A stretch of 64,000 bases of DNA. It comes from Candidatus Bathyarchaeia archaeon (GTDB taxonomy: Archaea > Thermoproteota > Bathyarchaeia > Bathyarchaeales > Bathycorpusculaceae). A program made the translations under genes and the position numbers. The DNA lies in contig JBEKXL010000001.1 in assembly GCA_049512075.1 (NCBI GenBank), positions 64,001 to 128,000 of the forward strand, written 5' to 3'. Shown here piece by piece: positions 13,012-36,300 of this stretch. The notes beneath the pieces are model-generated. The model was not told where the DNA came from. It did not search any database and saw nothing but the letters and a program-made list of their open reading frames with translations. The stretch's first letter is position 1. The number at the start of each line of letters is the position of its first letter.

Positions 13012-14241
13012 ACGTTTCTTACGCGTGAGGAAGAGGCGATGCTTGATGGCGAGTATGGAGAAGGGTACGAAATCGCCATGTCCGTTCTGGTCAAACTTGG
13101 AGACATCTATGGCGCTGACAGGATGCTGAAGGTCGAAAACGTCCATATTGACGGTGCCGCCTACGGCTGGATCAATGATTCTGGCTTGGAGCTGATTGGG
13201 AAATTGGCCAGCTCAGGAGCGCGTTTTCGGGTTCCAGCGACGCTGAACCCTTCTTCAATCGACTTTGACATGTGGCAAGAGCTAAAGATACCTTCTCACG
13301 TTGCAAGGAAACAGTTGAGGCTGGCCAAGGCCCTGAAGAGAATGGGCGGAACACCAACATGGACTTGTGCTCCGTATCAATACGGTGCAGATCTCAGGTT
13401 TGGCCAGAAGGTGGCTTGGGGAGAATCCAACGCCGTCGGTTTTGCAAACACTGTCGTCGGCGCAAGAACTGAGAGATTGGGAGATCTTGCTGACGTCTGT
13501 GCTGCGGTTGCCGGAGAGTACCCAAATTTTGGGCTGTACCTGGACGAGAACAGGCGAGGACAGGTACTCTTCGAGCCTGACAGACTTGACGTGGATGCCT
13601 TCGATTCTACAGACTATGGCGTCCTAGGTTTCTTCGTTGGATCCATCGCTAAAGCAAGGGTTCCAGTGGTTTCAGGAATGCCAGAAAAAGCGACAACCGA
13701 CCAGTTGAAGTCGTTTTGTGCAGCTGCCGCAGTTGGCGGTTCAGTGGCTCTGTGTCACCTGTGCGGGATCACGCCTTGGGCAAAGACAGTGGCAGAGGCG
13801 TTTCGCGGTTCGAAACCTGAAGAAAAAATAATCATCGAGGCTGGCGAGCTTGATCAAGCAAGACAGAAGCTAAGCACTGCCAATGAGGAGCCGCCTGAAG
13901 TTATCTGCATCGGATGTCCGCACTGCTCAGTTCAGGAACTCGTGAAGGTCGCGCGCCTTATTAAGGGCAGGAGAGTGGAAGACAGCGTGAGGTTCCTGGT
14001 TTTCACGAGCAGAGCGGCAAAGACGTTAGCAAGTGAAATGGGGGCGGTTGAGACAATCGAGTCGTCTGGGGGTAGAGTGATTGCTGACACATGCTGGAAC
14101 TTCATTCCCTCTAAAGCTGAGACCTTGATGACTGACTCTGTGAAAATGGCCTGGACGTCGCTGGGCAAATTCACAAACGTTGCACTTGGCAGTATAGAAA
14201 AGTGCGTCGATGTTGCGGCCGGAACAATGCCTAGAGGATGA
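13012..14241 (+). CDS. Aconitase X catalytic (large) subunit; probable cis-3-hydroxy-L-proline dehydratase type
   Basis: Fe-S ligand motifs TWTCAPY, GCPH, ADTC; WGESNA; HIDG. The family N-terminus (xFLTREEEAMLDGEYG) starts at ACG 13012. Confidence 0.88.
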   Translation, partial: TFLTREEEAMLDGEYGEGYEIAMSVLVKLGDIYGADRMLKVENVHIDGAAYGWINDSGLELIGKLASSGARFRVPATLNPSSIDFDMWQELKIPSHVARKQLRLAKALKRMGGTPTWTCAPYQYGADLRFGQKVAWGESNAVGFANTVVGARTERLGDLADVCAAVAGEYPNFGLYLDENRRGQVLFEPDRLDVDAFDSTDYGVLGFFVGSIAKARVPVVSGMPEKATTDQLKSFCAAAAVGGSVALCHLCGITPWAKTVAEAFRGSKPEEKIIIEAGELDQARQKLSTANEEPPEVICIGCPHCSVQELVKVARLIKGRRVEDSVRFLVFTSRAAKTLASEMGAVETIESSGGRVIADTCWNFIPSKAETLMTDSVKMAWTSLGKFTNVALGSIEKCVDVAAGTMPRG

Positions 14242-14711
14242 TCCGCGTGGGAAAAATCGTGATAAGATGCGTCCCGGTGTCGAAAGGCGTTTCAGAAGGA
14301 GAAGCTCTGGTAACGAGCCAGCCGATGTGTTTGTACGACTCGTTGGATCCTAAGTCTGGCCGCATCGTGAACAAGAGACATGAGCTGTATGGAGAATGTG
14401 TTTCTGGGAGAATTCTCTTCTTTCCCTACGGAATCGGCTCAAGCACGAGCGCCGCCACGATTCTTGAGGCCTCAAGATGTAAAAAAGCTCCAAACGCTAT
14501 AGTTAACCTAGAAACCGAGCCGATAATAGCTGTTGGCGCATTGTTGGCCGAGAGGCTTTATGGAAGGATAATTCCGATTGTTCACAGGCCAGAAATAGAC
14601 CCGGCAGAAGTGATTAAGCATCATTCTGTGAGAGTTAACGCCGACGTGGGCCTGATTGAAGTATTAGGACATGGTCGAGATGCAGCGCACGTTAAAGCGA
14701 ATAATGCATGA
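14238..14711 (+). CDS. Aconitase X swivelling (small) subunit (DUF126)
   Basis: GEALVT, DPKSG...HELYGECVSGRILFFPYGIGSS, AP.AI; ATGA overlap with the large subunit. Confidence 0.88.
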   Translation: MIRVGKIVIRCVPVSKGVSEGEALVTSQPMCLYDSLDPKSGRIVNKRHELYGECVSGRILFFPYGIGSSTSAATILEASRCKKAPNAIVNLETEPIIAVGALLAERLYGRIIPIVHRPEIDPAEVIKHHSVRVNADVGLIEVLGHGRDAAHVKANNA

Positions 14712-14783
14712 AATTGCAAAATCGGCGCACAACGTTTTTAAGAACTCTCGAGCTAGGTTTAATTAACAGGCGTTCTGGAAAAG

Positions 14784-15701
14784 GTGGAAAAGACCATCCA
14801 AAAAGGCATTGTTTTTGAAGTAAAAAGGTATGCCACGGACGATGGACCAGGCATACGTACGACCGTATTCTTCAAGGGATGCCCTCTGCGTTGCTGGTGG
14901 TGCCACAACCCCGAGGGCAAAAATTCGAAACCCGAGTTGATGTACAAACGGAACAGATGCAAAGGCTCGGGCGAATGTGTAAAAAACTGTCCAAAGAATG
15001 CAATCTCGAAAGGCGCTCAGTACGTGTCCATCAACAGAAAACTCTGCAACTTATGTGGAAAGTGTGCCCTAGCCTGTCCAAGCGATGCTCTAGTGCTAGT
15101 CGGCAGAGCAGCAAGAGCGGATGAGATGCTGAAGGAGATAGAAAAGGACGTGACCTTTTATGATGAGTCCGGCGGAGGCGTCACGTTCTCTGGTGGGGAA
15201 CCCCTCATGCAACCCGATTTCTTGGAAGCTCTACTTGAAGGTTGTAAGGAGAGAAACATTCGCACAGCCTTGGACACGTGTGGATATGCACCATGCGAAA
15301 CGGTGGATAGAATAAAGGACAAAGTTGATCTCTTTTTGTATGACATCAAGAGCATGGACGACCGGACGCATAGAAAGTACACGGGAGTGTCAAACAAACT
15401 CATCATTCAGAATTTCAAGAGATTAGCAGAGAATGGAAGCAGCATTTCGGTTCGCTTCCCCGTCATTCCGGGCGTCAACGACAACGCGGAAAACGTCACC
15501 AGGACAGGCGAGTTTGCACTTTCACTTGGCGTGAAGCAGGTGTGTCTTCTTCCTTATCACAGAGCAGGGATTGAAAAGTACAGAAGCCTGGACAAGACTT
15601 ACAGACTCGAGCATCTTCAATCTCCCTCAGACGAAAAAATGCAAATGATCAAGGAAAAACTTATCACACTCGGGTTAGACGTGAGAATAGGAGGAGGGTA
15701 A
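14784..15701 (+). CDS. Glycyl-radical enzyme activase (radical SAM with ferredoxin-like insert)
   Basis: DGPGIRTTVFFKGCPLRCWWCHNPE, two Cys-rich ferredoxin-like motifs, GGVTFSGGEP, LLPYH. Confidence 0.95.
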   Translation: MEKTIQKGIVFEVKRYATDDGPGIRTTVFFKGCPLRCWWCHNPEGKNSKPELMYKRNRCKGSGECVKNCPKNAISKGAQYVSINRKLCNLCGKCALACPSDALVLVGRAARADEMLKEIEKDVTFYDESGGGVTFSGGEPLMQPDFLEALLEGCKERNIRTALDTCGYAPCETVDRIKDKVDLFLYDIKSMDDRTHRKYTGVSNKLIIQNFKRLAENGSSISVRFPVIPGVNDNAENVTRTGEFALSLGVKQVCLLPYHRAGIEKYRSLDKTYRLEHLQSPSDEKMQMIKEKLITLGLDVRIGGG

Positions 15702-15702
15702 G

Positions 15703-18069
15703 ATGAAAGACAGGATTAGAAAGCTGAGAGAACGCAGCGTCAGCACTAAACCGTACATCACGCCGGAAAGGGCCGTTCTAATAACGGAGTTTTGCGCTGG
15801 CGAAGGGGCTAGTCAGTCAGCATCTACACCCGTGAAAAGAGCCCTTGCCCTGAAGTACTTGCTTGAACACAAGCAGATATTCATCGATGACGGTGAGCTC
15901 ATCGTTGGCGAGAGAGGACCTGCTCCGAAGGCCGTTCCCACTTACCCGGAGATATGTTGCCACAGCCTTCAAGATCTTGAAATTCTTAATTCGAGGAAGA
16001 AAACACCCTTTGCGGTGGATAAAGAAACGAGGAAAATATACGAAGACAATATCATACCTTTCTGGAAGGGTAAATCAATAAGGGAAATGATTTTTGGTCA
16101 AATGTCCAAAGAGTGGAAGCTCGCCTACGAAGCAGGAGTGTTCACAGAGTTTCTGGAGCAGAGAGCCCCAGGTCACACGGTTCTCGACGACAAAATCTAC
16201 CGGAAAGGCATGCTTGACTTCAAAAAGGACATTAAGAAGAGCATGCGAAGCCTCGATTTTCTGAATGATCCTGAAGCACTCAAGAAGATGGAAGAACTCA
16301 AGGCCATGGAAATCGCTGCAGACGCCTTGATCCGCTACGCCGAGCGACACGCCGGGAAGGCCAGAGAGATGGCAAAGAAGGAGAAAGACCCGACGAGAAG
16401 AAAAGAGCTTGAAAAGATAGCGGATGTCTGCTCTCACGTTCCGGCTAACGCGCCTCGCGACTTCTGGGAGGCTCTGCAGTACTATTGGTTTGTTCATCTA
16501 GGAGTCATATCGGAACTCAACCCGTGGGATTCATTCAACCCTGGCAGGCTTGATCAGCACCTGTATCCGTTCTACAAACGGGGCTTGGAGCAAGGCACGT
16601 TAACGAAAGAAGAAGCCAAAGAGCTTCTGGAATTGTTCTGGATAAAATTCAACAATCAACCGGCGCCGCCCAAGGTCGGCGTTACAGCGGAGGAGAGCAG
16701 CACCTACAATGATTTTGCTCTGATAAACGCGGGCGGCGTGAAAGCCGACGGCTCGGACGGCGTGAACGAGCTCTCGTACCTGATACTGGACGTTGTGGAG
16801 GAAATGAGGCTGATCCAGCCTGGCTCCATGGTTCAGATCAGCAAGAAAACTCCTGACAGTTTTGTGAAGAAGGCCGTGGAGGTCATAAGAGAAGGCTTCG
16901 GACAGCCCTCAGTCTTCAACACGGACGCAATAATTCAAGAACTCCTGCGGCAGGGAAAATCGATAGAGGACGCGAGAAACGGAGGAGCGAGCGGATGTGT
17001 GGAGGCGGGGGCTTTTGGAAAAGAAAGCTACATCCTCACTGGATACTTCAACCTCACTAAAATCTTAGAGATCGTCTTGAACAACGGTGTAGACCCAAGG
17101 ACGAAAAGAAAGATTGGCCTTGAAACCGGGGACCCTTCAGACTTCAGTTCTTTCGATGAACTCATCAACGCGTATGAGAAGCAACTAAACTACTTTGTCG
17201 ACGTCAAAATCAAGGGTAACAACATAATTGAGAGGCTGTACGCCGAGCATCTTCCAACGCCCTTCCTGTCACTCCTAATAAGCGATTGCGTGCAGAAAGG
17301 AAAAGACTACAGCGATGGCGGCGCCAGGTATAACACCAACTACATCCAGGGCGTAGGACTCGGAACGATAACTGATTCTTTGACAGCGATTAAACACAAG
17401 GTCTTTGACGAGAAAAACGTTAGGATGAAAGAGCTAGTCAATGCATTGCATGCCAACTTTGATGCGAACGAGAACCTTCGCCAAGTGCTTTTGAATAAGA
17501 CGCCTAAGTACGGCAACGACGACGATTATGCGGATGACATCATGAGAACTGTCTTTGAGATTTACTATCGTGCAGTGGATGGGAGGCCGAACACCAAGGG
17601 AGGCTATCACAGGATAAATCTTCTGCCGACCACGGTTCACGTTTACTTCGGGAAAGTGTTAGGCGCAACACCTGATGGGAGAAAAGCAGGTGAACCCGTT
17701 TCTGAGGGTGTGTCACCCGTCCAAGGAGCAGACAGGAAAGGTCCCACGGCAGTGATAAAGTCGGTTTCTAAGATAGATCATGTCAGAACAGGCGGGACTC
17801 TTCTCAACCAGAAATTTGCGCCAGAGCTGTTGGAAGACGAGCAGGGTATGGACAAGCTGGGCCACCTTATACGCACGTACTTCAAGCTTGACGGTCACCA
17901 CATCCAGTTTAACGTCATAAACGCGGAGACCTTGCGAGACGCACAGAAACATCCCGAGAAATACACGGATCTCCTAGTGAGAGTTGCAGGGTACAGCGAC
18001 TACTTCGTTGATTTGAGCACTGAACTTCAGAATGAGATTATTAAGAGAACGGAGCACAAATCGTTCTGA
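15703..18069 (+). CDS. hypD: trans-4-hydroxy-L-proline dehydratase (glycyl-radical enzyme)
   Basis: PTYPEICCH, TEFLEQRAPGHT, NPWDSF, ESSTYNDF, SGCVE, TGYFN, LLPTT, RVAGYS: HypD-type active-site segments as I recall them. Confidence 0.9.
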   Translation: MKDRIRKLRERSVSTKPYITPERAVLITEFCAGEGASQSASTPVKRALALKYLLEHKQIFIDDGELIVGERGPAPKAVPTYPEICCHSLQDLEILNSRKKTPFAVDKETRKIYEDNIIPFWKGKSIREMIFGQMSKEWKLAYEAGVFTEFLEQRAPGHTVLDDKIYRKGMLDFKKDIKKSMRSLDFLNDPEALKKMEELKAMEIAADALIRYAERHAGKAREMAKKEKDPTRRKELEKIADVCSHVPANAPRDFWEALQYYWFVHLGVISELNPWDSFNPGRLDQHLYPFYKRGLEQGTLTKEEAKELLELFWIKFNNQPAPPKVGVTAEESSTYNDFALINAGGVKADGSDGVNELSYLILDVVEEMRLIQPGSMVQISKKTPDSFVKKAVEVIREGFGQPSVFNTDAIIQELLRQGKSIEDARNGGASGCVEAGAFGKESYILTGYFNLTKILEIVLNNGVDPRTKRKIGLETGDPSDFSSFDELINAYEKQLNYFVDVKIKGNNIIERLYAEHLPTPFLSLLISDCVQKGKDYSDGGARYNTNYIQGVGLGTITDSLTAIKHKVFDEKNVRMKELVNALHANFDANENLRQVLLNKTPKYGNDDDYADDIMRTVFEIYYRAVDGRPNTKGGYHRINLLPTTVHVYFGKVLGATPDGRKAGEPVSEGVSPVQGADRKGPTAVIKSVSKIDHVRTGGTLLNQKFAPELLEDEQGMDKLGHLIRTYFKLDGHHIQFNVINAETLRDAQKHPEKYTDLLVRVAGYSDYFVDLSTELQNEIIKRTEHKSF

Positions 18070-18109
18070 ACGGCAAGCCCAGAACGGCGCTAGCTAGATT
18101 GACAAGCGG

Positions 18110-19093
18110 CTAAATCTCGATTTCTTTTCCGATTCCTTCTTTCTTTGCTTTATCATATGCCAGTTTTGCTACGGCGGCATCTTCGAGGGCTAAGCCCACG
18201 GCTTTCCAACACGTTATTTCGGAGTCAGACATTCTTCCAGGTTTTTCGCCGCCGACTATTTCTTGAAGTTCAGCGTAGATATCATCCTGTGAAATTATTC
18301 CCTTCTTTATTGGGACAATAAGGTCTCCAGTTTCAGCAAGTGCGCCCTCTTTGGTGTCGACGACGATTTTTGCTTTCTTGACGGTTTTATCGTCCAGTTC
18401 TCCTCCCTCAGGTCCGACTACTCCGATGGAGTTTATGTGCGCACCCATCTTTATCCAATCTCCGTCCAACACTGCAACCTTCGACGTTGTGGCTAAAACT
18501 ATTACATCGGAGTTTTCAACGCACTGTTTGCTGGTTTGCACAGGCTTAACTGTTAGGCTCAGTTCTCGTGAGACACTTTCGGCAAATTCCTCCGCCCTCT
18601 TAGGTAAAATGTCGTACACCTTTATTCTTTGAATGTTTTCAAGAACCTCGCACAGCCCCCGAACCTGAGCTCTTGCCTGACCGCCAGTACCTATGACACC
18701 GATTAAGCTGGAGTCTTTTCGTGCAAGGTACTTGGTGGCAACCGCGCTTGCGGCACCCGTCCTAGTGGCGGTAATATACGCTCCATCCATCAGAGAAAGC
18801 AGTTTGCCGTTTTCTGGATGGTTCAAGAGAATTGAGGCTAGTATCGTTGGTAAACCATGCTTCAGGTTCCCCTCGTACTGAGTGACTATCTTGATTGCTA
18901 AGGATCCCGTGCGACTGAGGTATGCGGGCATATAATAAACGAAGCCTTCATGTTTGTCGACGCTGATGATCACGCGCTTCGGAACTACCGCCTTTCCTTC
19001 GTACAACTCGAGGAAGGCTTTCTCTACCACTTGGATAGCTTCCCTCATGCTGACCAAGGATTCAACATCGCTTCTGCTAAGAAACAGGACCAT
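18110..19093 (-). CDS. Ornithine cyclodeaminase/mu-crystallin family protein (candidate pyrroline-2-carboxylate reductase)
   Basis: MPAY, IKIV, GLPT, ITATRTGAASAVAT, GTGGQA, GAHINSIG, KAVGLALED. Confidence 0.88.
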   Translation of the reverse strand: MVLFLSRSDVESLVSMREAIQVVEKAFLELYEGKAVVPKRVIISVDKHEGFVYYMPAYLSRTGSLAIKIVTQYEGNLKHGLPTILASILLNHPENGKLLSLMDGAYITATRTGAASAVATKYLARKDSSLIGVIGTGGQARAQVRGLCEVLENIQRIKVYDILPKRAEEFAESVSRELSLTVKPVQTSKQCVENSDVIVLATTSKVAVLDGDWIKMGAHINSIGVVGPEGGELDDKTVKKAKIVVDTKEGALAETGDLIVPIKKGIISQDDIYAELQEIVGGEKPGRMSDSEITCWKAVGLALEDAAVAKLAYDKAKKEGIGKEIEI

Positions 19094-19212
19094 TTTACTT
19101 GCCTCAAACCTAAGGCATAACCTCCTCACTTAACTTTTCTCTCTTCCTCAAAGCTAGAAAAACAAACGCATTGGCGTCTAGAGCTTAAATCGCGCCGTGG
19201 AAAACATGGGCA

Positions 19213-20088
19213 TTAAGCGGATTGTGGGCTGGGGCAGGAGCGGTTTGTAGCAAGATTGGTTAAGTATACGCCTCCAAGGGTGAGCCCTGAGCCCAGAAGT
19301 AATTCGAGGTTGAAGGGCTCTTTGAGAAATATCCATCCGAATAGGAGGGCGACTGCGGGAACGAGCAGGGCGGAGCTTGAAAGAGTTGTTGCTTCTTCAT
19401 CTCTTAGCAGATGAAGCCAGAGTATGTTGCCGATACCCAACGCGCCCGCAGCTGAAAAGAGAATTAGTGCAGCGTACTGCGGACTCATAGGAAACGCAAG
19501 ACTGTTCATACCTAAACTTAGAGTGATGAAGAGAACTGAACCGATGGCCAATTGCAGGAAGACTCCTATGAAAGGATCTGCGTGACATAGAAACTTCTTA
19601 TAGTAGACAACCGAGATTCCCCAGAAGAGAGCAGATAAGATCAGGATTAGAGTTGACCCGAGAGTGAAAGAGCCTGTTTTGTTGAGGAAGAGGATGGCGA
19701 CTCCGGTGAACCCTATGGCAGCTCCTAGTATCTTGCTGGCTGTGATTTTCTCTTTTAGGAATGGTGCTGCTAGGCACAGGACGAAGAGTGGTTGAGTGTA
19801 AAGGATTACCGCACTGATGCCTGAGCTCCCGCCAGCAAGCCCGAAGATCTGTCCTGCGTTTACCGCGGTATAGATGAGACCGTAGACTGTCAGTCCGCCC
19901 AGAGTTCCCAGATCTCGGGGCAATCTCTTGCGGAGTATGAGAAAAACTGGAAGGAGAACAGCAACGGAAATCACGAATCGGTGCAGAAGCAGCGTTGAAG
20001 GCGAAACGGAATTCAAAGCTATCTTCATCACAGAATAGTTCGATCCCCAAAGAACGACTAAAGCTATGAAAAGCGGCACGTTATGCAA
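19213..20088 (-). CDS. EamA/DMT family transporter
   Basis: LWGSNY, RF, YTQPLFV, FLKEK duplicated EamA pattern; TTG start at 20088. Confidence 0.87.
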   Translation of the reverse strand: MHNVPLFIALVVLWGSNYSVMKIALNSVSPSTLLLHRFVISVAVLLPVFLILRKRLPRDLGTLGGLTVYGLIYTAVNAGQIFGLAGGSSGISAVILYTQPLFVLCLAAPFLKEKITASKILGAAIGFTGVAILFLNKTGSFTLGSTLILILSALFWGISVVYYKKFLCHADPFIGVFLQLAIGSVLFITLSLGMNSLAFPMSPQYAALILFSAAGALGIGNILWLHLLRDEEATTLSSSALLVPAVALLFGWIFLKEPFNLELLLGSGLTLGGVYLTNLATNRSCPSPQSA

Positions 20089-20316
20089 CTTCAGACAGCC
20101 TTGCCTCCCAGCACGGATGTCTTCTAAAATGCACTGTAATATAAAAATCACATGGCAAAGTCCATCGTGGCACAATTCTGGATTCAGCGCGTTACAAAGA
20201 TATTGACGCGCAGTTACAAGCTCAGGTCTGAACTGATTCTTCTCAATTGGAGAAGGATGTGATTACGAGTTCAAATTCCGATGAAATCGTTATTTGTGCG
20301 ACAGAAGAGGGCACTC

Positions 20317-20682: not shown

Positions 20683-20728
20683 GCTAGCGCCTCATCAAAG
20701 ACAGACCGATCATGAAAGATAAAACTTT

Positions 20729-21080: not shown

Positions 21081-21149
21081 AATCGCGTGGGCTCGGACAA
21101 AAGCTTTATAGACTCTTGATTGGCGTTGGAGTCACCGCCGGGAAAAGCA

Positions 21150-22442: not shown

Positions 22443-22494
22443 CGCGAGAGTGCGCTTCATGCAACACGAACAAGGATGGAAAAAAGGGAAAAAG

Positions 22495-23631: not shown

Positions 23632-23632
23632 A

Positions 23633-24983: not shown

Positions 24984-25072
24984 AGATCGAAGACTCCTCG
25001 CAGAAGAATTGAGACACATAAAGAAAACTCGCTACACCGTGGCATCTGCGCGCGCCTTGCAAGAAGCGCGTT

Positions 25073-25353: not shown

Positions 25354-26352
25354 ATGTCAGACATAATCACTGTCAACAACCTTGTCATGGTGTACTCCGA
25401 CGGGACAAAGGCTGTTGACAATATTTCCTTCAACGTTAAGGAAGGCGAATTCTTCGGGTTTCTGGGTCCCAACGGAGCCGGAAAAAGCACAACGATCAAG
25501 ATTCTTACAACGCTCCTGAGAAAAACATCCGGTTCGGCCATCGTGGCAGGCCATGACCTTGACAAGGAGTCCGAGGAGATTCGAAAGCTCATCGGCGTGC
25601 AGAGCCAAGACACAGCTGTCGACGGAGACCTCACCGGCAGGGAGAATCTAATGCTTCAAGGTCATTTTCAACAGTTGCCCAGCCCCGAACTTAAGCAACG
25701 CGTGAACGAACTCTTGAAACTCGTGGAACTCGAAGACGCCGCGGACAAGCGTGCAAGAAACTATTCAGGCGGCATGAAGAAGAGGCTTGACCTCGCTACG
25801 GCCCTCGTCCACAGGCCGAGGTTGCTCTTCCTGGATGAGCCGACGACGGGCCTAGATCCTCAATCGCGCGCCGCGATATGGGCTTACCTTGAGAAGCTAA
25901 ACAAGAAAGAAGGCACCACCATATTTTTGACGACACAATACATGGAAGAGGCCGATAAACTCTGTCGGCAACTATCGATAATCGATTTCGGAAAGATAGT
26001 CGCCAGCGGGTCTCCAGCTGAGCTTAAACGCCAGGTCGGAGCCGACTCCATTAAACTATCACTTGAGAATTGTGCTAGGGATAAACCGAGCGCAAAGGAT
26101 ATCGTTAGCAGCCTTGAAGGCGTGACAAACGTGATCGATTCTGATGAGTGCTTGACCGTGTACGCGAAGAACGCGGGACTCATCATCGCCGACATCGTTA
26201 GAGCGTTTGACAGCAGAGGCATTCGGCTATCATCGGTCAGCTTTTCGTCGCCGACTCTTGATGACATCTTTCTGCAACACACGGGAAGGAGAATAAGGGC
26301 TGAGGAGCTTGTCAAGACCCCAAGCGCCATGCTTGGCGGAAGGAGGCGATAG
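25354..26352 (+). CDS. ABC-2 exporter ATPase (DrrA-like)
   Basis: GPNGAGKST, YSGGMKKR, LFLDEPTTGLDP, TLDDIF. Confidence 0.93.
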   Translation: MSDIITVNNLVMVYSDGTKAVDNISFNVKEGEFFGFLGPNGAGKSTTIKILTTLLRKTSGSAIVAGHDLDKESEEIRKLIGVQSQDTAVDGDLTGRENLMLQGHFQQLPSPELKQRVNELLKLVELEDAADKRARNYSGGMKKRLDLATALVHRPRLLFLDEPTTGLDPQSRAAIWAYLEKLNKKEGTTIFLTTQYMEEADKLCRQLSIIDFGKIVASGSPAELKRQVGADSIKLSLENCARDKPSAKDIVSSLEGVTNVIDSDECLTVYAKNAGLIIADIVRAFDSRGIRLSSVSFSSPTLDDIFLQHTGRRIRAEELVKTPSAMLGGRRR

Positions 26353-26355
26353 AAT

Positions 26356-27135
26356 ACGACTCTTTTCTCTGACACCAGATACCTCTTCGTTAGGTACTTG
26401 AAGAAACTCGTCAGAAACCCCATTCTGCTCTTCTTCTCGCTCTTTCAACCCATAATATTCCTGCTCCTTTTCACGCAGTTGTTCTCGAAGTTCTCTTCCT
26501 TGCCGGGGTTTCTCCAAGCCACTGGCGCCAGCAGCTATCTTGAGTTCGCCACTGCCGGCATCCTCCTCCAAAACGCTTTCGGCAGTGCCTTGCAATCGGG
26601 AACATCAATAGTGCTTGATCTGGATACGGGATATTTGCAGAAAATGCTCGTGACGCCAGTCAGCAGATATGCGATATTGCTGGGAAGATTGACTAGTGAC
26701 GCTTTCAGAGTCGTGGTTCAGTCGACAATCATCCTGGTGCTTGCCTATGCCTTGGGCGCCACAGTATCAACAGGGATTGTGGGAATACTGCTCATGCTTT
26801 TCACTGTAGCCTTCTTCGGCCTCGCTTGGTCTGGAATTTCCCTGGCCATAGGGTTGAAGACAAGATCCTCTGAGACAGTGTTTGCGATAGGCGGATTCAT
26901 TACTTTTCCGTTGCTGTTCTTGAGCACGGCTCTGACTCCGAGGGTCTTTATGCCCGATTGGATATTGGACGTCTCGAACTTCAACCCCATAAGCTACACC
27001 GTGGACGCGGCCCGGGCGCTCATGGTCACTGGATACGATTGGGGCACGGTGCTCAAAGCGTTCGGCGTGATTGGGCTTATCGCAGCTGTCACTTTAGGAG
27101 CGACGCTGTACCAGTTCAGGAAGGTAGTTAGCTAG
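26356..27135 (+). CDS. ABC-2 exporter permease (DrrB-like)
   Basis: FQPIIFLLLF, LVTPVSR, FLSTA, MPDW, NPISY; N-terminus xTLFSDTRYLFVRYLKK starts at ACG 26356. Confidence 0.9.
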   Translation, partial: TTLFSDTRYLFVRYLKKLVRNPILLFFSLFQPIIFLLLFTQLFSKFSSLPGFLQATGASSYLEFATAGILLQNAFGSALQSGTSIVLDLDTGYLQKMLVTPVSRYAILLGRLTSDAFRVVVQSTIILVLAYALGATVSTGIVGILLMLFTVAFFGLAWSGISLAIGLKTRSSETVFAIGGFITFPLLFLSTALTPRVFMPDWILDVSNFNPISYTVDAARALMVTGYDWGTVLKAFGVIGLIAAVTLGATLYQFRKVVS

Positions 27136-27937
27136 TTGAGAAGCGCGATTGAGATTTTTGGAATCTAACGGCGTGAAAATTTGGTTTTGCCCCGTGTGGT
27201 TTTCCCACATAGCTACTATGCGTAGAGAAAAACAGAGATGGATTACGCGTCCCCTGTGATCAGGAGCTGAAGTGAATTGGATTTGCTTGCCCGCGCAAGA
27301 CTTTGAGATATTCTATAGAGTTGAAGAAAACTGGTTCGGTACGCGAGGGGTTTTGAATACCATGAAACAGGATAAGTGCATGCTTGCAAATGCAAGTGAA
27401 CAAATTTGGCTGGCTTTAAATAGTTGAATCTCACTAAGTTAATTATGGGGAACATTGTTGGAAATACAACATCGTTGCTTCAACGAGTTCCCACATCAAT
27501 GCACAGAATGTCCAAAATACAGCGAATCACTTGCCGATCCAACTTTGCAACTCGCCCTGCTGACAGGTATTGGCGGCCTACCATACCCACGGCAATACAG
27601 AAGAAGGGTTACCAAAGAATGCAAACTATATCACAAGCGCAAAGTCGAATATTCAGATTAATGAAAAATCTCCCATAAACGACAATTGCGGGGAATCTGC
27701 GTTATTTCCCATTTTTGTCCGAGTGTTTTTTTTTCTTCTTTTTAACATTCTTCTTTTTCTCGATAGGGTGCGTATAGCGCGCGCAGGAGTGACAGAAATC
27801 GGGCCGAATAGCGGTAAGAAAAGCTCAGTTTGAGGTTTTCTGGAAACCGACGGAGTGGTCGAAGTGCTTTCAGCATTACCGCGTGCTATGACGTGTGTCG
27901 GATGAGTGGAAGCACTTGTTTGCAGAAGTGTAGGGTG

Positions 27938-28612
27938 TTAGTCTTCTGCTTTTAACCTGCCATCCTGCATGGTGTACACCTTGTCTGTGACGTCGATTAT
28001 TTTTTCGTCGTGTGTTGCGACGACCACCATGGTCTTCTCAATTTCGTTCACGTCCTGAAGTAGAATGATTATTTCCCTGGCCGTCCTCGAGTCTAGCTCT
28101 CCTGTAGGCTCGTCGGCGACTATTACCTCCGGGTTGTTTGCGAGAGCCCTCGCGATAGCCACCCGCTGCATCTCACCCATGCTCAACTGTTTCGGCCTGT
28201 GATCACGCCTGTTTGAAAGCCCTAGTCTCTCAAGAAGCTTCAGCGCCTTCTCCTCTTGCACTTCCTGAGACTTATTGGCCAGTGACATGGGCAGCTCAAC
28301 GTTCTCCAGTGCGGTCAGCGTGGGAAAAAGGTTGAAGGTTTGAAATATGAAGCCCATGCGCGTGTTACGGATCCTTCTGCGTTCGCGACCGGACAGCTGC
28401 GAAGCATCAGCATCGTCGACGAAGATGTTTCCCGAGGTCGGATAATCATTCAATCCCATCAGGTTGAGCAGTGTCGATTTGCCTGACCCTGAGGGGCCGA
28501 TGACAGCGAAGAGTTTTGGCTCTTTGAGCTCTAGGTTGACCGCTTTGACGGCTGCTATTTCTGATGAACCCACCCGGAACGTTCTTGTCAGGTTCACTGT
28601 TCGGATATTCAT
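27938..28612 (-). CDS. ABC transporter ATPase (LolD/MacB-type)
   Basis: GPSGSGKST, GFIFQTFNL, LSMGEMQRVAIARAL, ADEPTGELD, THD. Confidence 0.93.
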   Translation of the reverse strand: MNIRTVNLTRTFRVGSSEIAAVKAVNLELKEPKLFAVIGPSGSGKSTLLNLMGLNDYPTSGNIFVDDADASQLSGRERRRIRNTRMGFIFQTFNLFPTLTALENVELPMSLANKSQEVQEEKALKLLERLGLSNRRDHRPKQLSMGEMQRVAIARALANNPEVIVADEPTGELDSRTAREIIILLQDVNEIEKTMVVVATHDEKIIDVTDKVYTMQDGRLKAED

Positions 28613-29790
28613 CAGTATTCAGCTCTTAAGACTTCAGCTATGTGCATCCTCATAGCGTTTACCGCAGGGATTATTCCGCCGAGGCAGCAGATGCCCACGA
28701 TGGCCGTGAACATTTCCAGCATGTAGACTGGCGGAACGATTTCCAGCACGCTGGGAAAGAACAGGGTCACAGGAATGCTAGTGTAGAAACTTGCTAACAT
28801 GAGGGCTGTCAGCGAGCCGAAGGCTACCCCGATTATGCCGCCGAGGACACCTATGAGGAGGGTCTCGATGACTACTACTCTGAATATATAGCTCATCGGC
28901 GCTCCAATCGCGTCCAATGTTGCGAAGTCACGACGCCTCTCTGACACGCTCATGACAGTGACTGTCATGACGAGTATCAGGCTCATGACAAAGACTACCG
29001 CTTCAATGCCTAATGTCCAAGTCTGCACCTGATCTAGGACGGGTTGGACGATGTCGTTTCTTTCAGTTTCTGTCAAGGCGCTGACGTAGCCTATTCGCTG
29101 CTTTATGGCCGTGGTCAGGTTTTGCTGTGCTATGTTTTGAAGCGGTTTTACCGCGATTATGTTTACGCTCTGCGGATAATTGTAGATGGTCTGCGCCAGT
29201 GTGAGGGGCATGACTAGGCAGCGGTTCAGCAAGGCCATTTTCGTGTCGAAGACGCCTGAAACATGCAGGGTGTAGCCGTTTACTCGGATGTCTATGCCCA
29301 CGGTCCAGTTGTACTGGTCAGCGATAGAGGCGCCTGCAACGATTTCGTTGCTCGAATCATTTGCTGGAAAATGGCCACTCGGCCTCAGTGGTATGGGTCC
29401 GAGGACGAGCCCCCAATCGTCAACTGGTATGCCCATCGTGAAGTTCACTGGGACTGCCTGAACCATTCCCTGTGATCCGACAGACGTAACGAAGAGGACC
29501 GGAGTCACAGTGGCCACCCCTGAGATGTTCACTAGTTCTTTCACTGTGGAATCTTCAGGCAGCATACCCCCGCTGATAGGTATTGCCTGAACTACAATGG
29601 CGTCCTTGCTTACCACGGTTACTTGACCGTTGAAGAGCACGTTCATTTCCCGTATCACCGTTGCATACCGCATGGTGGTGGCGCCGACGGCGATGACGAA
29701 AGTTGCTGCGATTGCCACTCCCAGAATGCACAGGAATGTTCTGATTTTTCTGCGGAAAAGGTTTCTGAAGCAGAATGTCAGCAGTCGCGT
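28612..29790 (-). CDS. FtsX/MacB-type ABC permease
   Basis: MSVSERRRDF...AIGA, PA..A...LRAE; the family N-terminus (RNLFRRKIRTFLCILGVAI) lies upstream of the GTG and starts at ACG 29790. Confidence 0.88.
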   Translation of the reverse strand, partial: TRLLTFCFRNLFRRKIRTFLCILGVAIAATFVIAVGATTMRYATVIREMNVLFNGQVTVVSKDAIVVQAIPISGGMLPEDSTVKELVNISGVATVTPVLFVTSVGSQGMVQAVPVNFTMGIPVDDWGLVLGPIPLRPSGHFPANDSSNEIVAGASIADQYNWTVGIDIRVNGYTLHVSGVFDTKMALLNRCLVMPLTLAQTIYNYPQSVNIIAVKPLQNIAQQNLTTAIKQRIGYVSALTETERNDIVQPVLDQVQTWTLGIEAVVFVMSLILVMTVTVMSVSERRRDFATLDAIGAPMSYIFRVVVIETLLIGVLGGIIGVAFGSLTALMLASFYTSIPVTLFFPSVLEIVPPVYMLEMFTAIVGICCLGGIIPAVNAMRMHIAEVLRAEY

Positions 29791-29888
29791 TCGCGATCCC
29801 TCTTGGCGCTTAGTCTTACGTGAAAACTATTTAAGCATTGGCAACCTATGATCATAAGGGCAGTGTCAATTCTTACGGAGAAAGGAAG

Positions 29889-32800
29889 ATGAAAACTACG
29901 AGACTTTTAAGTCTGTCCGTAGCATTTCTCCTGTTGGTTTCACCTTTCATGACTATGAGCAGACCCTACGTGACCGCTCAAACACCTGGAGCGACTTTGA
30001 CCGGCAACATTCTTGATCATGGTGCAGACGCCAACGGCAACGGCCTATACGATTATTTGGAAGTCGATGTGGAAGTCAATGTAACCGTCGCAGGAAACTT
30101 TATGTTATCAACCGGCACGCTTATGGATCAGTTCGGCAACATTATCCCTGTCTCTAACAATAGTCAAGGCTTCCTCAACGCGGGCATTCAATATTTGAAC
30201 GTATCCTTGTTCGGGCCTACGATTTTCAGCTATCAACTGAACCCTGAGAAAATCTATGAGATTTCTCTTTACACCGAAAACTACACATGGCAAGGCATTT
30301 ACAATGTGACCTTGTCGCGGATTTACAACTATACTGAATTTGATTCTCGTGCATTCTGGACTGGAAAGGTTTCGGATCGAGGTGTTGACACTGACGGTGA
30401 CGGGCTGTTCAACTATCTTGAAGTCGGAATAGAATTCAATGTCACAGAAGCGGGACAATATATGTTAGATGCCGCGGGGTTGATGGAGAAAAACGGATTC
30501 ATGATGAACTATTTGTATGAGTCCCACTATGAAACGAAAACCTTCAGCCCGGGCATTTACACGTTCGACATGAATTTCTCAGGTTCACAAATCGCTTCTG
30601 AACGTATCAACCCGACGCATGTAAATTACTTGAGCATATACGATCTGACAAACATTGTTGTGCTGAGTCAGCTTGATTCTGCCCCTCTTTCAAAGAGATA
30701 TGACTACACGCTTTTCAATGCGCCTTCAAGAGATATTCAAGTCAACTTCCAAGTCTACCCAAACGCCACGATTGCGGTGGCCGGGGCGCTCAATTATACA
30801 CACATGTATCCAGAGAACACTTACTATCCTGAAATGAATGCTTCAGTGGGTTTTTCAACAAATGGAAACATGACGACTGAGACTTCCAACGGCACTTTCT
30901 TCTTTCCCGAAGACACCTACAAAGGCTACAACACGATCGAAGCCCATTCACTCTTTACCTATAAGAACGGGTTTGAGAACAACACCATCACTGCTTCAGC
31001 AATATTGCCTCCGGAAGAAACACAGTTTTATCCGTACAATGCGACTGATGTAGGCCTCAACGCCTCATACGCCGGCGGCTTTTTCGACGTGGCCATCAAC
31101 GGGCAGACGGTAATACCCACGCCCGCCTACAGTGCTGCGTACAGCACTCTTTTTCCGTTTAACATGTCAGACGCCACCGTGCGCGCAGAATTCGACGGGA
31201 CGACATTGCAGGGAAACATCACATTCCACGTGATTCCAGGTTTCCCGCTCACCGACGTAACGGTTTACTTCAGCGGCAACAGAAGCAGCCTCAACCTAAT
31301 GGGTAACGTAAACGTCACGTACTCGAACTATGGCGACTTTCAGGTAAATCAAACAACGCTTGACCAGAAACTCGCTGACTTGAGTGCCAACTTCACTGGA
31401 GGGGGGCCAAGCTCGCTTTACAACGAGAGTGGGGGTTGCCTAGAATGCACTAATCTGAACGTCACGAAGACGCCATGGTCAGGGTCGACGTTGGGCGCAG
31501 ACGTCATGTACAGTGCCACGGTCGTCGGCAATTTCACAGGGGCCTTGGCTCGTATGATGTTTCCGGCGGGATCTCCGGATGATCAGGTGCAGCAGTTTGC
31601 ATACGCATCCTTGGAGTCGGCGGGTTCCTCGGTCAAAAACGCGTCCTTGGTACTCAGTTACTATCATGAAACAGGCTTAGCACAAATAGACTTGCATTTG
31701 ACCTGCGACGTGCAGGGCCTGTGCAGCAGCCTCCTCTTGCTGGCGCCGCCAGCGATACCATCTTACTGGTCCTCAGAGGAGAAGCAAATCGAAGCTTTGT
31801 TCAAGGTTGCAAACGCGACATCCTATGCGTTGACAGGCGCAGGCGTGAAAGCCTCATATTCGAGCGCTGAGAGAAAAACGACTCTTGACGCCTGGCTCAG
31901 GGGCAACGATAGACAGCTTAAGAACGACCTCATTCCAGTTCTGCCTGACTTAGTACCACCGAACATGCACGACCTCATCGCATCTTACTTCAACACTACC
32001 TATGGCACCGTGAACTCTTCGGTAACGACTTTTGATATGGTGAACGGAACCGCAACTTTTGCTTCACAAGTGAACCTTCAGGGCGATTTCGAGGCTGAGC
32101 TGAACCTTGAAAAAGCTCTTCTAATAGCATCCTTCAACGCGACGCTTCCGTCATCGTTACCTCCCACATGGGAGCTGAGCGTTCTTAACGAGACCGACAT
32201 AAACATCAACAACTTCGAAGCAGAGCTTCAGTCGGGACGAGACTGGATGTACGCGAACTTCAGCGGCCTGATTCTCAAACCTCAACCCGACGATATCAGC
32301 GCGATAACGTTTAGACTCAAGAATTGGTTGAACATGACAAACAGTCCCAACGCGCCACCGCAGGACTTCGACAAATTCAGCATCACGATAACTGGGGCGT
32401 CGAGTGAAAACCAGACGGTCCTGCTATCACAGCAGCCTAACCTGCCTTCACCCGATCAGCTCTCCCCTGACGGCAGAAGCATGGTCTGGAACAATGCCTC
32501 TCTCAGCAGCCTACAGGACGTGACTTTTCTCATAGCTTACCAGAGTCGAATCAATTACGCGGGAGGAAGCTATGATGTTCCAATATTCACGAACTCCACG
32601 GTAACGGCCTTTGCCTTCGATCCAAATGCCAAGCAAATAGCCTTCAACGTCACGGGACCGCCGGGCACTGGCTTCAGCAACGTGACCATCCCTAAAGCGC
32701 TGCTCAACGCGAGCGCACTCAGTGATTGGACTGTGACGTTTGACGGACAAAACTTGACTCCGCAACAGTTTAATATAACACAAAACGCCGAGTACGTGTT

Positions 32801-33017
32801 CGTGTACCTGAACTACACACATTCAGCGCACGTGATAACAATCAGGGGCACTCAGCTCGTCCCGGAGTTTCAACCCGACATCCTGCCAGTAGCCCTCGCA
32901 ATCCTGCTCATCATCGTAGCCATAGTAGCCGTGAGACAGAGAAGAAAACTCGAGCCCGTGAAAACCAGGTTCCTTCGGACTGTGGCACGCCTTAGGTCCC
33001 CTCAGAAACCAAGCTGA
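29889..33017 (+). CDS. Large secreted surface glycoprotein with PEF-CTERM-like C-terminal sorting signal
   Basis: Signal peptide, two DxG.DxxGxGL(Y/F)xYLEV repeats, many N-x-S/T sequons, C-terminal VPEF + TM helix + basic tail. Confidence 0.75.
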   Translation: MKTTRLLSLSVAFLLLVSPFMTMSRPYVTAQTPGATLTGNILDHGADANGNGLYDYLEVDVEVNVTVAGNFMLSTGTLMDQFGNIIPVSNNSQGFLNAGIQYLNVSLFGPTIFSYQLNPEKIYEISLYTENYTWQGIYNVTLSRIYNYTEFDSRAFWTGKVSDRGVDTDGDGLFNYLEVGIEFNVTEAGQYMLDAAGLMEKNGFMMNYLYESHYETKTFSPGIYTFDMNFSGSQIASERINPTHVNYLSIYDLTNIVVLSQLDSAPLSKRYDYTLFNAPSRDIQVNFQVYPNATIAVAGALNYTHMYPENTYYPEMNASVGFSTNGNMTTETSNGTFFFPEDTYKGYNTIEAHSLFTYKNGFENNTITASAILPPEETQFYPYNATDVGLNASYAGGFFDVAINGQTVIPTPAYSAAYSTLFPFNMSDATVRAEFDGTTLQGNITFHVIPGFPLTDVTVYFSGNRSSLNLMGNVNVTYSNYGDFQVNQTTLDQKLADLSANFTGGGPSSLYNESGGCLECTNLNVTKTPWSGSTLGADVMYSATVVGNFTGALARMMFPAGSPDDQVQQFAYASLESAGSSVKNASLVLSYYHETGLAQIDLHLTCDVQGLCSSLLLLAPPAIPSYWSSEEKQIEALFKVANATSYALTGAGVKASYSSAERKTTLDAWLRGNDRQLKNDLIPVLPDLVPPNMHDLIASYFNTTYGTVNSSVTTFDMVNGTATFASQVNLQGDFEAELNLEKALLIASFNATLPSSLPPTWELSVLNETDININNFEAELQSGRDWMYANFSGLILKPQPDDISAITFRLKNWLNMTNSPNAPPQDFDKFSITITGASSENQTVLLSQQPNLPSPDQLSPDGRSMVWNNASLSSLQDVTFLIAYQSRINYAGGSYDVPIFTNSTVTAFAFDPNAKQIAFNVTGPPGTGFSNVTIPKALLNASALSDWTVTFDGQNLTPQQFNITQNAEYVFVYLNYTHSAHVITIRGTQLVPEFQPDILPVALAILLIIVAIVAVRQRRKLEPVKTRFLRTVARLRSPQKPS

Positions 33018-33145
33018 GCGCGCGCGCCACATCCCCATCCGAACCCAAGCGCCTCATCCCCACCACTTTTTTCCCCACTCCGCCACCTTTTTGTATTGCA
33101 CGCGCTACTTGTACAGGCATCAGTCAAACCGGAAAAGGCGTCTCC

Positions 33146-34255
33146 ATGAAGTACGAAATCAAATGCTCAGCATGCAACAAGCCTTCTTCCAATTTGCTTG
33201 CGTTCAAATGTCCGTCATGCGGCCATCCGTTGGACGTTCAACTGGATTTCAATTTTGAACCTGACAAGATACGCACTAGTAACTACAGCGTCTGGAGATA
33301 CGAACAATTTTTCCCTTACGCTCAAGAGAAGAAAATCGTAACTCTTTCAGAAGGTTGGACCCCGTTGGTCAAGTTATCAGACAATGCGTACGTGAAGCTT
33401 GAAAGTGCGAATCCTACTGGTTCTTTCAAGGACAGGGGCTCAACTGTTCTGGTTTCCGCCTTGCGCGACCTCATAGAAGAGGCGGGCGGTTACATTTCTG
33501 AAGATTCTTCGGGCAACGCTGGAGCTTCGATGGCCGCCTACGCTGCCCGTGCAGGCTTGAAGGCTAGGATCTACGTTCCGGAGACTGTTGCGGGTCCAAA
33601 GTTCAATCAAATCCAGTTTTACGGGGCGCAGGTCACGAAGGTTTCGGGCAGCCGCAGCAGAGTCGCGGAAGAAGCCCAGAGTGTGGAGAAGGGAAAATTC
33701 TATGTTGGCCACATACTTCATCCGCTCTTCAGAGACGGAATAAGAAGCCTTGCATACGAAATATTCGAACAGTTCGGATGGAATGTTCCTGAACGCATCT
33801 ACCTACCCGTTTCGGCCGGGACTCTGCTATTGGGCTTGATAAGCGGTTTCAAGCACCTGTCAGATTCAGGGGGCATAGAAGCCTTTCCGAGGACTGTAGC
33901 TTGCCAAACACGGCAGATCTCACCGCTCTACCACCGATTCAAAGGCTTGAAGTATGATCCGCCAGAAAAGGTGACATCCATCGCCGATGCGTTGGTAAGC
34001 ACAAAACCTCCGCTGCTAGATCTTATGGTCAAGGGTTTGAAGGAGGTTAAGGGCGACGCGGTTATGGTTGATGAGGAGGAGATAATGGAGGCGTTCTTGG
34101 AGCTGGCGAGGAGGGGTTTCTTTGTTGAGCCGAGCTCAGCTGTTGCCTACGCTGGTTACAAGAAGCAACTGGCGAACAATGAAGTGTCACGGGAAAGCAG
34201 AGTTGTGATAGTCCTGACTGGGAACGGTTTGAAAACGGCGATTAAGCCAAACTGA
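33146..34255 (+). CDS. thrC: Threonine synthase
   Basis: N-terminal Zn ribbon, EGWTPL, NPTGSFKDRG (PLP Lys), SSGNAG, VEPSSA, LTGNGLK. Confidence 0.88.
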   Translation: MKYEIKCSACNKPSSNLLAFKCPSCGHPLDVQLDFNFEPDKIRTSNYSVWRYEQFFPYAQEKKIVTLSEGWTPLVKLSDNAYVKLESANPTGSFKDRGSTVLVSALRDLIEEAGGYISEDSSGNAGASMAAYAARAGLKARIYVPETVAGPKFNQIQFYGAQVTKVSGSRSRVAEEAQSVEKGKFYVGHILHPLFRDGIRSLAYEIFEQFGWNVPERIYLPVSAGTLLLGLISGFKHLSDSGGIEAFPRTVACQTRQISPLYHRFKGLKYDPPEKVTSIADALVSTKPPLLDLMVKGLKEVKGDAVMVDEEEIMEAFLELARRGFFVEPSSAVAYAGYKKQLANNEVSRESRVVIVLTGNGLKTAIKPN

Positions 34256-34309
34256 CACTGGGCCTCATGGGTTAATGCTTGAAAATCTTGTTTTCGGCTG
34301 ATTTTTTTA

Positions 34310-34323
34310 GAAAAACTTATATG
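34310..34323 (+). promoter_or_regulatory. BRE/TATA promoter of the thermosome gene
   Basis: GAAAAAC-TTATAT about 45-55 nt upstream of the start; GAGGAGG RBS follows. Confidence 0.5.
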
Positions 34324-34367
34324 TTGAAGCTGTTTCTGTTTGTGACGCATTGAGGAGGTTATAGGAT

Positions 34368-36038
34368 TTGTCATCACAACAATCAGCTGGCGGTGTTCCA
34401 GTTTTAGTGCTGAAAGAAGGTTCAAACCGCTCAAGAGGAAAGGAAGCGCAGAACTCAAACATAGAAGCAGCAAAAATCGTTGCTGAAGTAATCAAGAGCT
34501 CTCTCGGACCTAAGGGCATGGACAAAATGCTTGTCGACAGTTTCGGCGACGTGACGATAACGAGTGACGGGCGCACAATCTTGGATGAGATGGACATTCA
34601 GCATCCAGCAGCGAAGATGATGGTGGAAGTTGCTAAGACACAGGACAACGAAGCTGGAGACGGAACGACAACGGCCGTGATAATATCCGGTGAGCTTCTG
34701 AACAGGGCTCAGGAACTGATTGAGAAAAGCGTTCATCCCACGATAATAATCGACGGATACAGGAAAGCTTCAGAAAAAGCATTGGAAATCCTAGAGAAAA
34801 TCGCGATACCGGTAGACCTGAACTCTCAGGATTACTTGAAGAAGGCTGCAATGACTTCGATGGCCAGCAAACTGGTCGCCGAACACAAGGAATACCTGGC
34901 AGACTTGGCTGTAAAATCGATTCTTGCGGTTGCGGAGAAGGAAGGCGAGAAGTACAAGGCAGACGTGGACGATGTCAAGGTTGAGAAGAAACCCGGCGAA
35001 TCCGTGAGGGACACGAAGCTCATCCAGGGCATAGTATTGGACAAGGACGTCGCGCATTCTGGGATGCCTAAACGCGTGGAGAAGGCAAAGATTCTGTTGT
35101 TGGATGCGGTGCTTGAGATTGAAAAAACCGAGTTCGACGCAAAGATTAACATCGAAAGCCCTGAGCAGATGGAGGCGTTCATAAAACAGGAAGAAGACAT
35201 GCTGCGCGACATGGTTGACAAGGTCGTCAAGACGGGCGCAAACGTCGTTCTCACCGAGAAAGGCATCGACGACATGGTCCAGCATTTCATGGCGAGAAAA
35301 GGAATCCTTGCGGTTAGACGAAACAAGAAGTCAGACATGGAGAAACTTGCAAAGGCCACTGGAGGAAAAATAGTTTCAAACCTGGATTCCATGACTTCGG
35401 AGGATTTGGGTTACGCGGCTCTTGTGGAAGAACGGAAGATAGGCGACGATAAGATGACTTTCATAGAAGGGTGCAAGCACCCGAAGGCCGTCACGATTCT
35501 CATCAGAGGCGGAACACAGCGCATAGTCGACGAAGCTGAAAGATCATTGCACGACGCGTTGTGCGTGGTCAGAGACATAGTTCAGGAACCCAAAGTGCTT
35601 GCCGGCGGCGGCGCGTCTGAACTGGAAGTTTCCCGCGGACTGAAAAAGTATGCTGAGACGCTTCCGGGAAGGGAGCAGCTGGCAGTCGTAGCTTTTGCAG
35701 AGGCTCTTGAAGCGATTCCGACGACACTGACAGAAAACGCTGGTCTGGACCCGATTGACATACTCTCGGATCTAAGGTCAAGACACGAGAAAGGCGAAGT
35801 GTGGGCTGGAATAGAAGTTAACACTGGAAAAACTCAGGACATGAGCAAAGCCGGAGTTATTGAACCCATTTCCGTCAAGAAACAGATAATCAAATCGGCC
35901 ACTGAAGCCTCGACGATGCTGTTGAAAATCGACGATGTGATTGCTTCCGGAAAGATGAGAACTCCTCCAGGACCCCCAGGAGGCGGCGGCCCACCAGGCG
36001 GGATGGGCGGCGGTTACCCTAGTATGGGGGAGTACTAG
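34368..36038 (+). CDS. Thermosome (group II chaperonin) subunit
   Basis: [30 protein letters not shown], Gly/Pro/Met tail. Confidence 0.97.
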
Positions 36039-36042
36039 AACT

Positions 36043-36300
36043 ACGTCAGAGAAAAAGAAAATCACGATTGGACCGCCAAAAATCACCCGGTTTGAAAAGG
36101 CAAGGATAGTGGGGGCTAGAGCCCTTCAGATATCCATGGGAGCCCCCATACTTGTCGACGTGTCAGAAGGCTTCACAGGACCTATAGACATAGCGTTAAA
36201 AGAGTTCGCAGCCGACATACTGCCCATAACCGTTAGAAGGACATTGCCAGACGGTAGCTTCCAAGACATTCCCTTGAAATGGCTTCTCGCGGAGCACTAA
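36043..36300 (+). CDS. rpoK: DNA-directed RNA polymerase subunit Rpo6 (K)
   Basis: [26 protein letters not shown]...[10 protein letters not shown]; part of the core motif lies upstream of the first canonical start (GTG 36109), so ACG 36043 is proposed. Confidence 0.92.

Follow-up and report, generated by a model that had tools for sequence, protein, structure and literature searches.

Start codons outside the usual set are known from bacteria, in which infC starts at AUU, and from plant organelles, in which start-codon editing turns ACG into AUG. Here we analyze a 64,000-nt stretch of DNA from Candidatus Bathyarchaeia archaeon (order Bathyarchaeales; assembly GCA_049512075.1, contig JBEKXL010000001.1, positions 64,001–128,000 of the forward strand; hereafter the window), in which ACG is very probably the start codon of four genes, one of them encoding the RNA polymerase subunit Rpo6, as it is in related Bathyarchaeia. 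In the part of Asano (2014; PMC4705826) that bears on start codons, archaea and bacteria are described as permitting GUG and UUG beside AUG, and for yeast ACG is named as one of the strongest codons other than AUG. NCBI table 11 admits TTG, CTG, ATT, ATC, ATA, ATG and GTG as starts and does not include ACG. Full-text literature searches returned no report of ACG starts in archaea or of odd starts in Bathyarchaeia.

Eukaryotic near-cognate initiation resembles the present case in that the codon is one base from AUG and that ACG and CUG are favored beyond GUG and UUG, and the Bathyarchaeia factor set (aIF1, aIF1A, aIF2) is of the eukaryotic type. It differs in that the mRNAs of Bathyarchaeia are led by a Shine-Dalgarno (SD) motif and often polycistronic, that the odd codon is here the only start of essential single-product genes rather than that of upstream open reading frames or extended isoforms, and that it is conserved across an order. 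With bacterial rare starts such as that of infC, these genes share a weak start codon that appears to be kept by selection on particular genes, but no autoregulatory loop is apparent here, and the gene for aIF1 itself apparently starts at ATG. The likeness to plant organelle editing is that the DNA reads ACG at the position of the family Met. Table 11 already allows the CTG, ATC and ATA cases reported below but not ACG. What is new here, in our view, is that near-cognate initiation is conserved on core genes and has become a habit of a whole lineage, an archaeal order, in which ACG is the most striking form.

ACG at the start column of four genes

The source genome (G000; 2.73 Mb in 86 contigs, 99.8% complete) is metagenome-assembled, and the window corresponds to G000:C1:64001-128000. 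Canonical codon is used here for ATG, GTG or TTG. The first-pass annotation of the window had proposed that in four genes the family N-terminus lies upstream of the first canonical codon, and that an ACG behind an SD-like motif and downstream of an in-frame stop takes the place of the initiator. The positions it gave for ACG, stop and SD motif are correct for all four genes when read in the sequence, and family profiles confirm the placement of the N-termini. In every case the profile begins at or before the ACG, and not a single in-frame ATG, GTG or TTG lies between the upstream stop and the family N-terminus. An SD core is found 3–10 nt upstream of all four sites. Alignment of orthologues likewise agrees, for all four, with initiation at the ACG and not at the downstream canonical codons. 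What has been observed directly is where the codons lie, that they are conserved and alternate with canonical starts, and that SD motifs precede them.

The first of the four genes considered here, rpoK, encodes Rpo6. Read from ACG, the gene occupies 36043..36300 (plus strand; 85 codons), as judged from NCBIfam RpoK, Pfam Rpb6 and conservation of the start column. It follows a thermosome gene (Cpn60_TCP1; 34368..36038, plus strand; Pfam E = 5e-194), the stop of which, TAG 36036-36038, lies 4 nt before the ACG. The SD-like motif GGGGAG (36027..36032, plus strand) is placed 10 nt before the ACG, inside the last thermosome codons (M G E Y stop), and the rpoK frame is closed upstream by TGA 35956, 29 codons ahead of the ACG and within the end of the thermosome gene. 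A canonical codon first appears at GTG 36109, and a start there would remove TRFEKARI, which is covered by both NCBIfam RpoK and Pfam Rpb6. In a survey of the order, 39 of 41 genomes matched and 30 loci from 12 families were read; 28 of these 30 genomes have ACG at the start column, one (G020) has ATG and one (G033) ACC. The last has a GTG three codons upstream and is the sole case among the 30 of an ACN codon other than ACG. The 80 best relatives in the genome collection, almost all of them metagenome-assembled genomes (MAGs) of Candidatus Bathyarchaeia/Bathyarchaeota, have ACG at 69 loci, ATG at 5 and CTG at 5, with one unclear, and a mechanical rule applied to the same loci gave 67 ACG. All five CTG loci have a GTG nine codons upstream. 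In most relatives the in-frame stop of the thermosome gene stands one codon ahead of the ACG, which makes an upstream start impossible there.

The conservation concerns the codon and not a threonine. As an internal control, the conserved Thr of TRFE is spelled ACC 11 times, ACT 10, ACG 6 and ACA 3 in the 30 genomes; because this internal Thr uses all four ACN codons, the ACG at the start column is constrained at the codon level. The codon after it is Ser (TCA 8, TCT 6, TCC 4, TCG 3) or Pro, with all synonymous variants, and the spelling of this Ser with all four TCN codons indicates that the position is translated. ATC 36061, which is a start in table 11, lies where the relatives have Ile, Val or Leu codons and thus reads as an internal rpoK residue in the alignment. 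The adjacency of thermosome gene and rpoK is kept throughout the order. In many relatives (L004, L006, L009, L011-L015, L020, L027) the two genes share one frame of about 640 amino acids that is split by a single TAG and one codon, whereas in G000 they lie in different frames. Contigs of two RNA runs carry a 9-nt deletion at position 36013, where the thermosome gene encodes a glycine-rich tail, and thus represent a strain variant.

The second gene, AcnX (aconitase X/cis-3-hydroxy-L-proline dehydratase-like), would extend from ACG over 13012..14241 (plus strand), as supported by Pfam AcnX and the orthologue column. The in-frame stop TGA 13003-13005 is followed by GGG AAC and then the ACG at 13012, and it overlaps the SD-like motif GAGGG (13004..13008, plus strand), which ends 3 nt before the ACG. 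Positions 3-400 of the 400 in the Pfam profile align, starting two residues past the ACG, so that profile position 1 coincides with the ACG. The first canonical codon, ATG 13039..13041 (plus strand), is 9 codons past the ACG and corresponds to the second conserved Met of M-x-L-T-x-E-E-x-x-M-L. Of the 30 loci examined, 29 gave an N-terminal match, and at the Met of M-[YFH]-L-T-x-E-E these have ATG in 24 cases, GTG in 1 and ACG in 4; the ACG loci are those of G000, its G003 orthologue and paralogues in G022 and G028. The AcnX start lies 91 nt past the preceding gene. A proline-racemase-like gene, AcnX and the AcnX swivel subunit stand in a row at 11895-14711 of the window and resemble a hydroxyproline catabolic cluster, and G000 holds three AcnX paralogues.

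The remaining two genes encode permeases. An ABC-2 (DrrB-like) permease would start from ACG and occupy 26356..27135 (plus strand), on the basis of profiles that begin upstream of its first canonical codon, TTG 26398, and of the orthologue column. The ABC2_membrane and drrB profiles begin 7 and 2 residues, respectively, before this TTG. The SD motif AGGAGG (26341..26346, plus strand) is located 9 nt before the ACG and within the end of the upstream gene, a DrrA-like ABC ATPase, whose stop TAG 26350-26352 is separated from the ACG by 3 nt. In seven orthologues, the start column is ACG in three (G000, G002, G021) and ATG in four (G004, G040, G003, G020). Just past this gene, at 27141-27389, one contig of the DNA run X3 (depth 240 of 324) skips 247 nt, a population deletion variant. 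On the minus strand, an FtsX/MacB-type ABC permease is read from ACG 29790 (28612..29790), again from a profile match (MacB_PCD) and the orthologue column. Its SD-like motif GAGGGA (29797..29802, minus strand) lies 6 nt before the ACG, with the in-frame stop TAG 29827-29829 further upstream. The first canonical codon, GTG 29718, falls inside the first membrane helix, 7 residues past the start of the MacB_PCD profile. The start column in 14 orthologues is ACG in 10, ATG in 3 and GTG in 1. This gene is the first in its unit and divergent from its neighbor.

Odd start codons in the genome and its relatives

To place the window in a genomic context, gene models of G000 were compared with those of two relatives, G003 from the same genus and G012 from the same family, over 1.2 Mb of each; the comparison with G012 comprised 682 orthologue pairs with a median identity of 70%. 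Automatic tabulations of the codon aligned to the partner's start were noisy with both partners, because BLAST alignments extend into the purine-rich SD motif and the true start often differs from the first canonical codon, and hand curation was used instead, limited to pairs whose similarity extends upstream of the first canonical codon. Upstream similarity to G003 carries little weight, since G003 is so near to G000 that leaders are conserved as DNA. The curation yielded nine clear odd starts in G000: four ACG (HflX, a YbdK-like ligase, rpoK and one more gene), four CTG (Rpo7, a MinD/ParA-like ATPase and two more genes) and one ATC. All nine have an SD core 4-11 nt upstream.

For HflX, Rpo7 and one family of unknown function, the start pieces (66-72 nt) were read in 19-20 additional genomes. 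For HflX, 22 of 23 genomes have ACG as the start, with GGAGGA conserved ahead of it. The lone ACA (L392; G009:C2:4053-4118) is preceded by a CTG codon, as if the start had shifted by one codon. The Rpo7 gene, rpoE, is located outside the window at G000:C2:4321-4938 (plus strand), and position 1 of its NCBIfam profile is the predicted CTG start. The column in 23 genomes is CTG in 8 (G000 and 7 of 22 relatives), TTG in 9, ATG in 5 and GTG in 1, and the first canonical codon in G000 comes 84 codons past the CTG (codon 85 of the open frame). Variation is also seen in the family of unknown function, the start column of which reads ATG 12, TTG 3, GTG 2, ATC 3, ACG 1 and ATA 1 in 22 loci. ATC occurs in G000, G003 and G001, where the third case results from manual re-reading of a locus that the automatic tally had entered, out of frame, as TCC; ATA occurs in G025, and one genus alone shows ATC, ACG and ATG.

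A separate screen of G000 based on SD motifs added DnaG, with a probable ACG start behind GGAGGTG and a profile that begins 18 residues before the first canonical codon, as well as likely CTG starts of a glycosyltransferase, a PIN protein and a secreted protein. One CTG from this screen corresponds to ATG in G003.

The association of ACG with SD motifs exceeds what is expected by chance. Across 2,298 gene models, 51 of 321 ACG codons located before the first canonical codon have an SD core 4-10 nt upstream, as against a background of 9.7% (p = 3.6e-4), and ACG is the top codon in this respect, purine-rich AAA apart. For first canonical codons themselves the figure is 20-32%. Codons with an upstream SD and at least five codons to the first canonical codon number 31 for ACG, compared to 19 for ACA, 17 for ACC and 19 for ACT, and in a coding-like context the corresponding counts are 19, 7, 6 and 7; Thr codon usage is nearly even. 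In the coding-like screen CTG stands at 11 versus 5, 2 and 8 for its comparison codons. The resulting excess of about 12 ACG and about 6 CTG starts is a lower bound. From the curated pairs, odd starts are estimated at about 1-2% of genes (9 clear cases and up to 14 with ambiguous ones among 682 pairs; 1.3-2%). The first-pass annotation had counted about 4 in 55 genes as non-canonical. A crude gene model of the window reproduces the 55 genes, but the window is a rich sample and overstates the genome-wide rate.

Initiation mechanism and alternatives

We consider, with considerable confidence, that SD-assisted near-cognate initiation by the ordinary initiator tRNA is the best explanation. ACG would be read as a near-cognate initiation codon by Met-tRNAi (anticodon CAU) with a C·A mismatch at the middle position, and strong SD pairing a few bases upstream would fix the 30S subunit on the site and so enable initiation there. 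We infer that Met is the first residue of these proteins. The trait is order-wide rather than peculiar to this genome, with a start set of AUG, GUG and UUG extended by ACG and CUG and occasionally AUC or AUA. The use of different near-cognate codons, all of them preceded by a strong SD motif, argues for a general tolerance rather than an ACG-specific device. Several of the genes with weak codons (Rpo6, Rpo7, DnaG, HflX, membrane permeases) are required at low or closely controlled levels. Selection would maintain these codons, most probably because they attenuate translation from within the gene and so hold its output low and fixed. In rpoK, the ACG is placed 4 nt past the stop of the highly expressed thermosome gene. 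Translational down-tuning, one of three mechanisms put forward in the first-pass annotation, is a plausible role for odd starts. Another of the three, relaxed start selection, fits best, since CTG, ATC and ATA are found at start columns in the same genomes. The altered initiation components invoked with it were not borne out where they were inspected. The one initiator tRNA (G000 C1:200381-200480) has a CAT anticodon and an A1 end, contains an intron and keeps the three G-C pairs that are usual for the anticodon stem. aIF1 carries a zinc knuckle and aligns over its full length with the solved aIF1 of M. jannaschii and Pyrococcus, being about 60% identical to the former by manual reading of the alignment. 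The 3´ end of 16S rRNA, sought for its anti-SD, was not found in the MAG.

Several points weigh against this interpretation. To judge from their sequences, aIF1 and the initiator tRNA are ordinary, and neither accounts for the tolerance of ACG in this lineage. The start sites and first residues of the proteins are themselves predictions from DNA. The relatives are not independent samples, and the counts therefore overstate the number of independent events. Outside the order, several rpoK genes use canonical codons, and their N-termini diverge too far for the start column to be placed. In three FtsX-type orthologues with ACG, a TTG lies within two codons, upstream in G003 and downstream in G022 and G005, so that the ACG need not be the start in those three. 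The genome-wide estimate depends on hand curation, the automatic tabulations being noisy. Finally, the codon at 36043-36045 is spanned by two RNA contigs (X18 record 8, X19 record 15), each with 2 differences at positions that are not localized, so that they are compatible with an edited as well as an unedited start codon; the contigs over the rpoK ACG come from a close strain, and the three metatranscriptome runs to hand hold small parts of the stretch, none over 26356 or 29790.

Editing was the third mechanism of the first-pass annotation. C-to-U conversion in mRNA would turn ACG into AUG and CUG into UUG on core genes (Rpo6, Rpo7, DnaG, HflX) before translation. ACG and CTG, the commonest odd starts, are each one C-to-U change from a canonical start, and strict conservation of ACG would be expected under editing too. 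It is disfavored because ATC and ATA starts, which occur in G000, G003 and G001 and in G025 at a column where 12 relatives have ATG, would not become canonical through C-to-U changes; under editing, these rare starts would need a second explanation. This also separates the present case from plant organelles. The DYW-type deaminase (PF14432) was not matched in the 99.8% complete genome, in a search in which the control genomes gave no match either, and a single generic CDA-fold deaminase gene was found in G000. To our knowledge, there is no description of such C-to-U mRNA editing from archaea, a topic that our literature searches did not ask about. We give this mechanism a slim chance; if true, archaea would have their first known case of mRNA editing, and the expression of core genes would depend on the editing level. 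A slimmer chance still is given to the idea that ACG starts work solely through termination-reinitiation by a ribosome finishing the upstream gene. The distances at rpoK (4 nt past the thermosome stop) and at the ABC-2 permease (3 nt past the ATPase stop) invite this idea, as does the usual spacing of one codon in the rpoK of relatives, and stop coupling may add to the mechanism at these two genes. It is not the general mechanism, since AcnX, 91 nt past the preceding gene, and the FtsX-type gene, first in its unit and divergent, are not next to an upstream stop, and every site has its own SD motif.

Translation from the first downstream ATG, GTG or TTG would need no unusual biology. The proteins would be shorter and the upstream similarity would reflect an untranslated leader, at a modest loss for AcnX (ATG 9 codons down) and the ABC-2 permease (TTG 14 codons down). 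The cost elsewhere makes this highly improbable, as TRFEKARI would be missing from Rpo6, half of the first membrane helix from the FtsX-type permease, 18 profile positions from DnaG and some 84-85 residues from Rpo7. Moreover, the stretch from ACG to the canonical codon shows synonymous variation together with amino-acid conservation, and orthologues have ATG exactly at the ACG column. More improbable still is a dedicated second initiator tRNA (e.g. with anticodon CGU) that reads ACG, or initiation by the elongator Thr-tRNA(CGU), which would give an N-terminal Thr. A tRNA-Thr(CGU) is present on C32, and the set of tRNAs detected in the MAG is incomplete (43 by ARAGORN when introns are permitted, 36 by Rfam). 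A BLAST search of G000 with the initiator tRNA revealed no second initiator-like gene, and one extra tRNA would leave the CTG, ATC and ATA starts unexplained. That the ACGs are assembly or consensus errors for ATG has nothing in its favor beyond the metagenomic origin of the genome, and is refuted. Contigs (records 27, 28 and 32) of X3, an independent DNA run whose sample is not among the two flagged as possible sources of the genome, cover 26356, 29790 and 36043 with no other letters at about 94-fold word depth (the X3 stretch compared did not include 13012), and dozens of independently assembled genomes have the same bases.

Consequences for annotation and further candidates in the window

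Because ACG is absent from the table 11 start set, gene callers must truncate or shift these genes. The Rpo6 of G000 would be called as 63 residues without the conserved core, or as 79 from the ATC, and the N-termini of DnaG, HflX, Rpo7 and the permeases would be cut off. The problem extends across an uncultured archaeal lineage that is widespread, and it includes marker genes on which phylogeny and completeness estimates draw. For translation biology, the use of ACG and CUG on essential genes to the depth of an order, with eukaryote-type factors and SD-led mRNAs, would provide a natural system for the study of start-codon stringency. With respect to regulation, the genes for RNA polymerase subunits, primase and a ribosome-rescue GTPase, which all have weak starts, may form a set whose output depends on initiation fidelity.

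A fifth candidate start in the window is ATA (3386..3388, plus strand), located behind GAGGGAG and also ATA in G003. In both genomes a GTG lies 12 codons downstream, and the N-terminus is covered by no family profile. Eight other window genes with a long stretch before the first canonical codon have no family domain upstream of that codon. One further frame, at 52648-53622 (minus strand), runs for 59 codons before its first canonical codon (GTG 53445) and has a weak HTH match well downstream. Two candidates from the genome at large were rejected: g823 (GalT-like), which is explained by an ATG 15 codons downstream, and g281 (aldehyde dehydrogenase), which resembles a frameshift. The aldehyde dehydrogenase frame (G000:C23:12884-14362, minus strand) has 79 codons without a canonical start; an SD motif and an ATG occur 7 nt before the frame opens, in another frame that is closed after 4 codons. 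This locus may represent a +1 frameshift, an indel error or a pseudogene.

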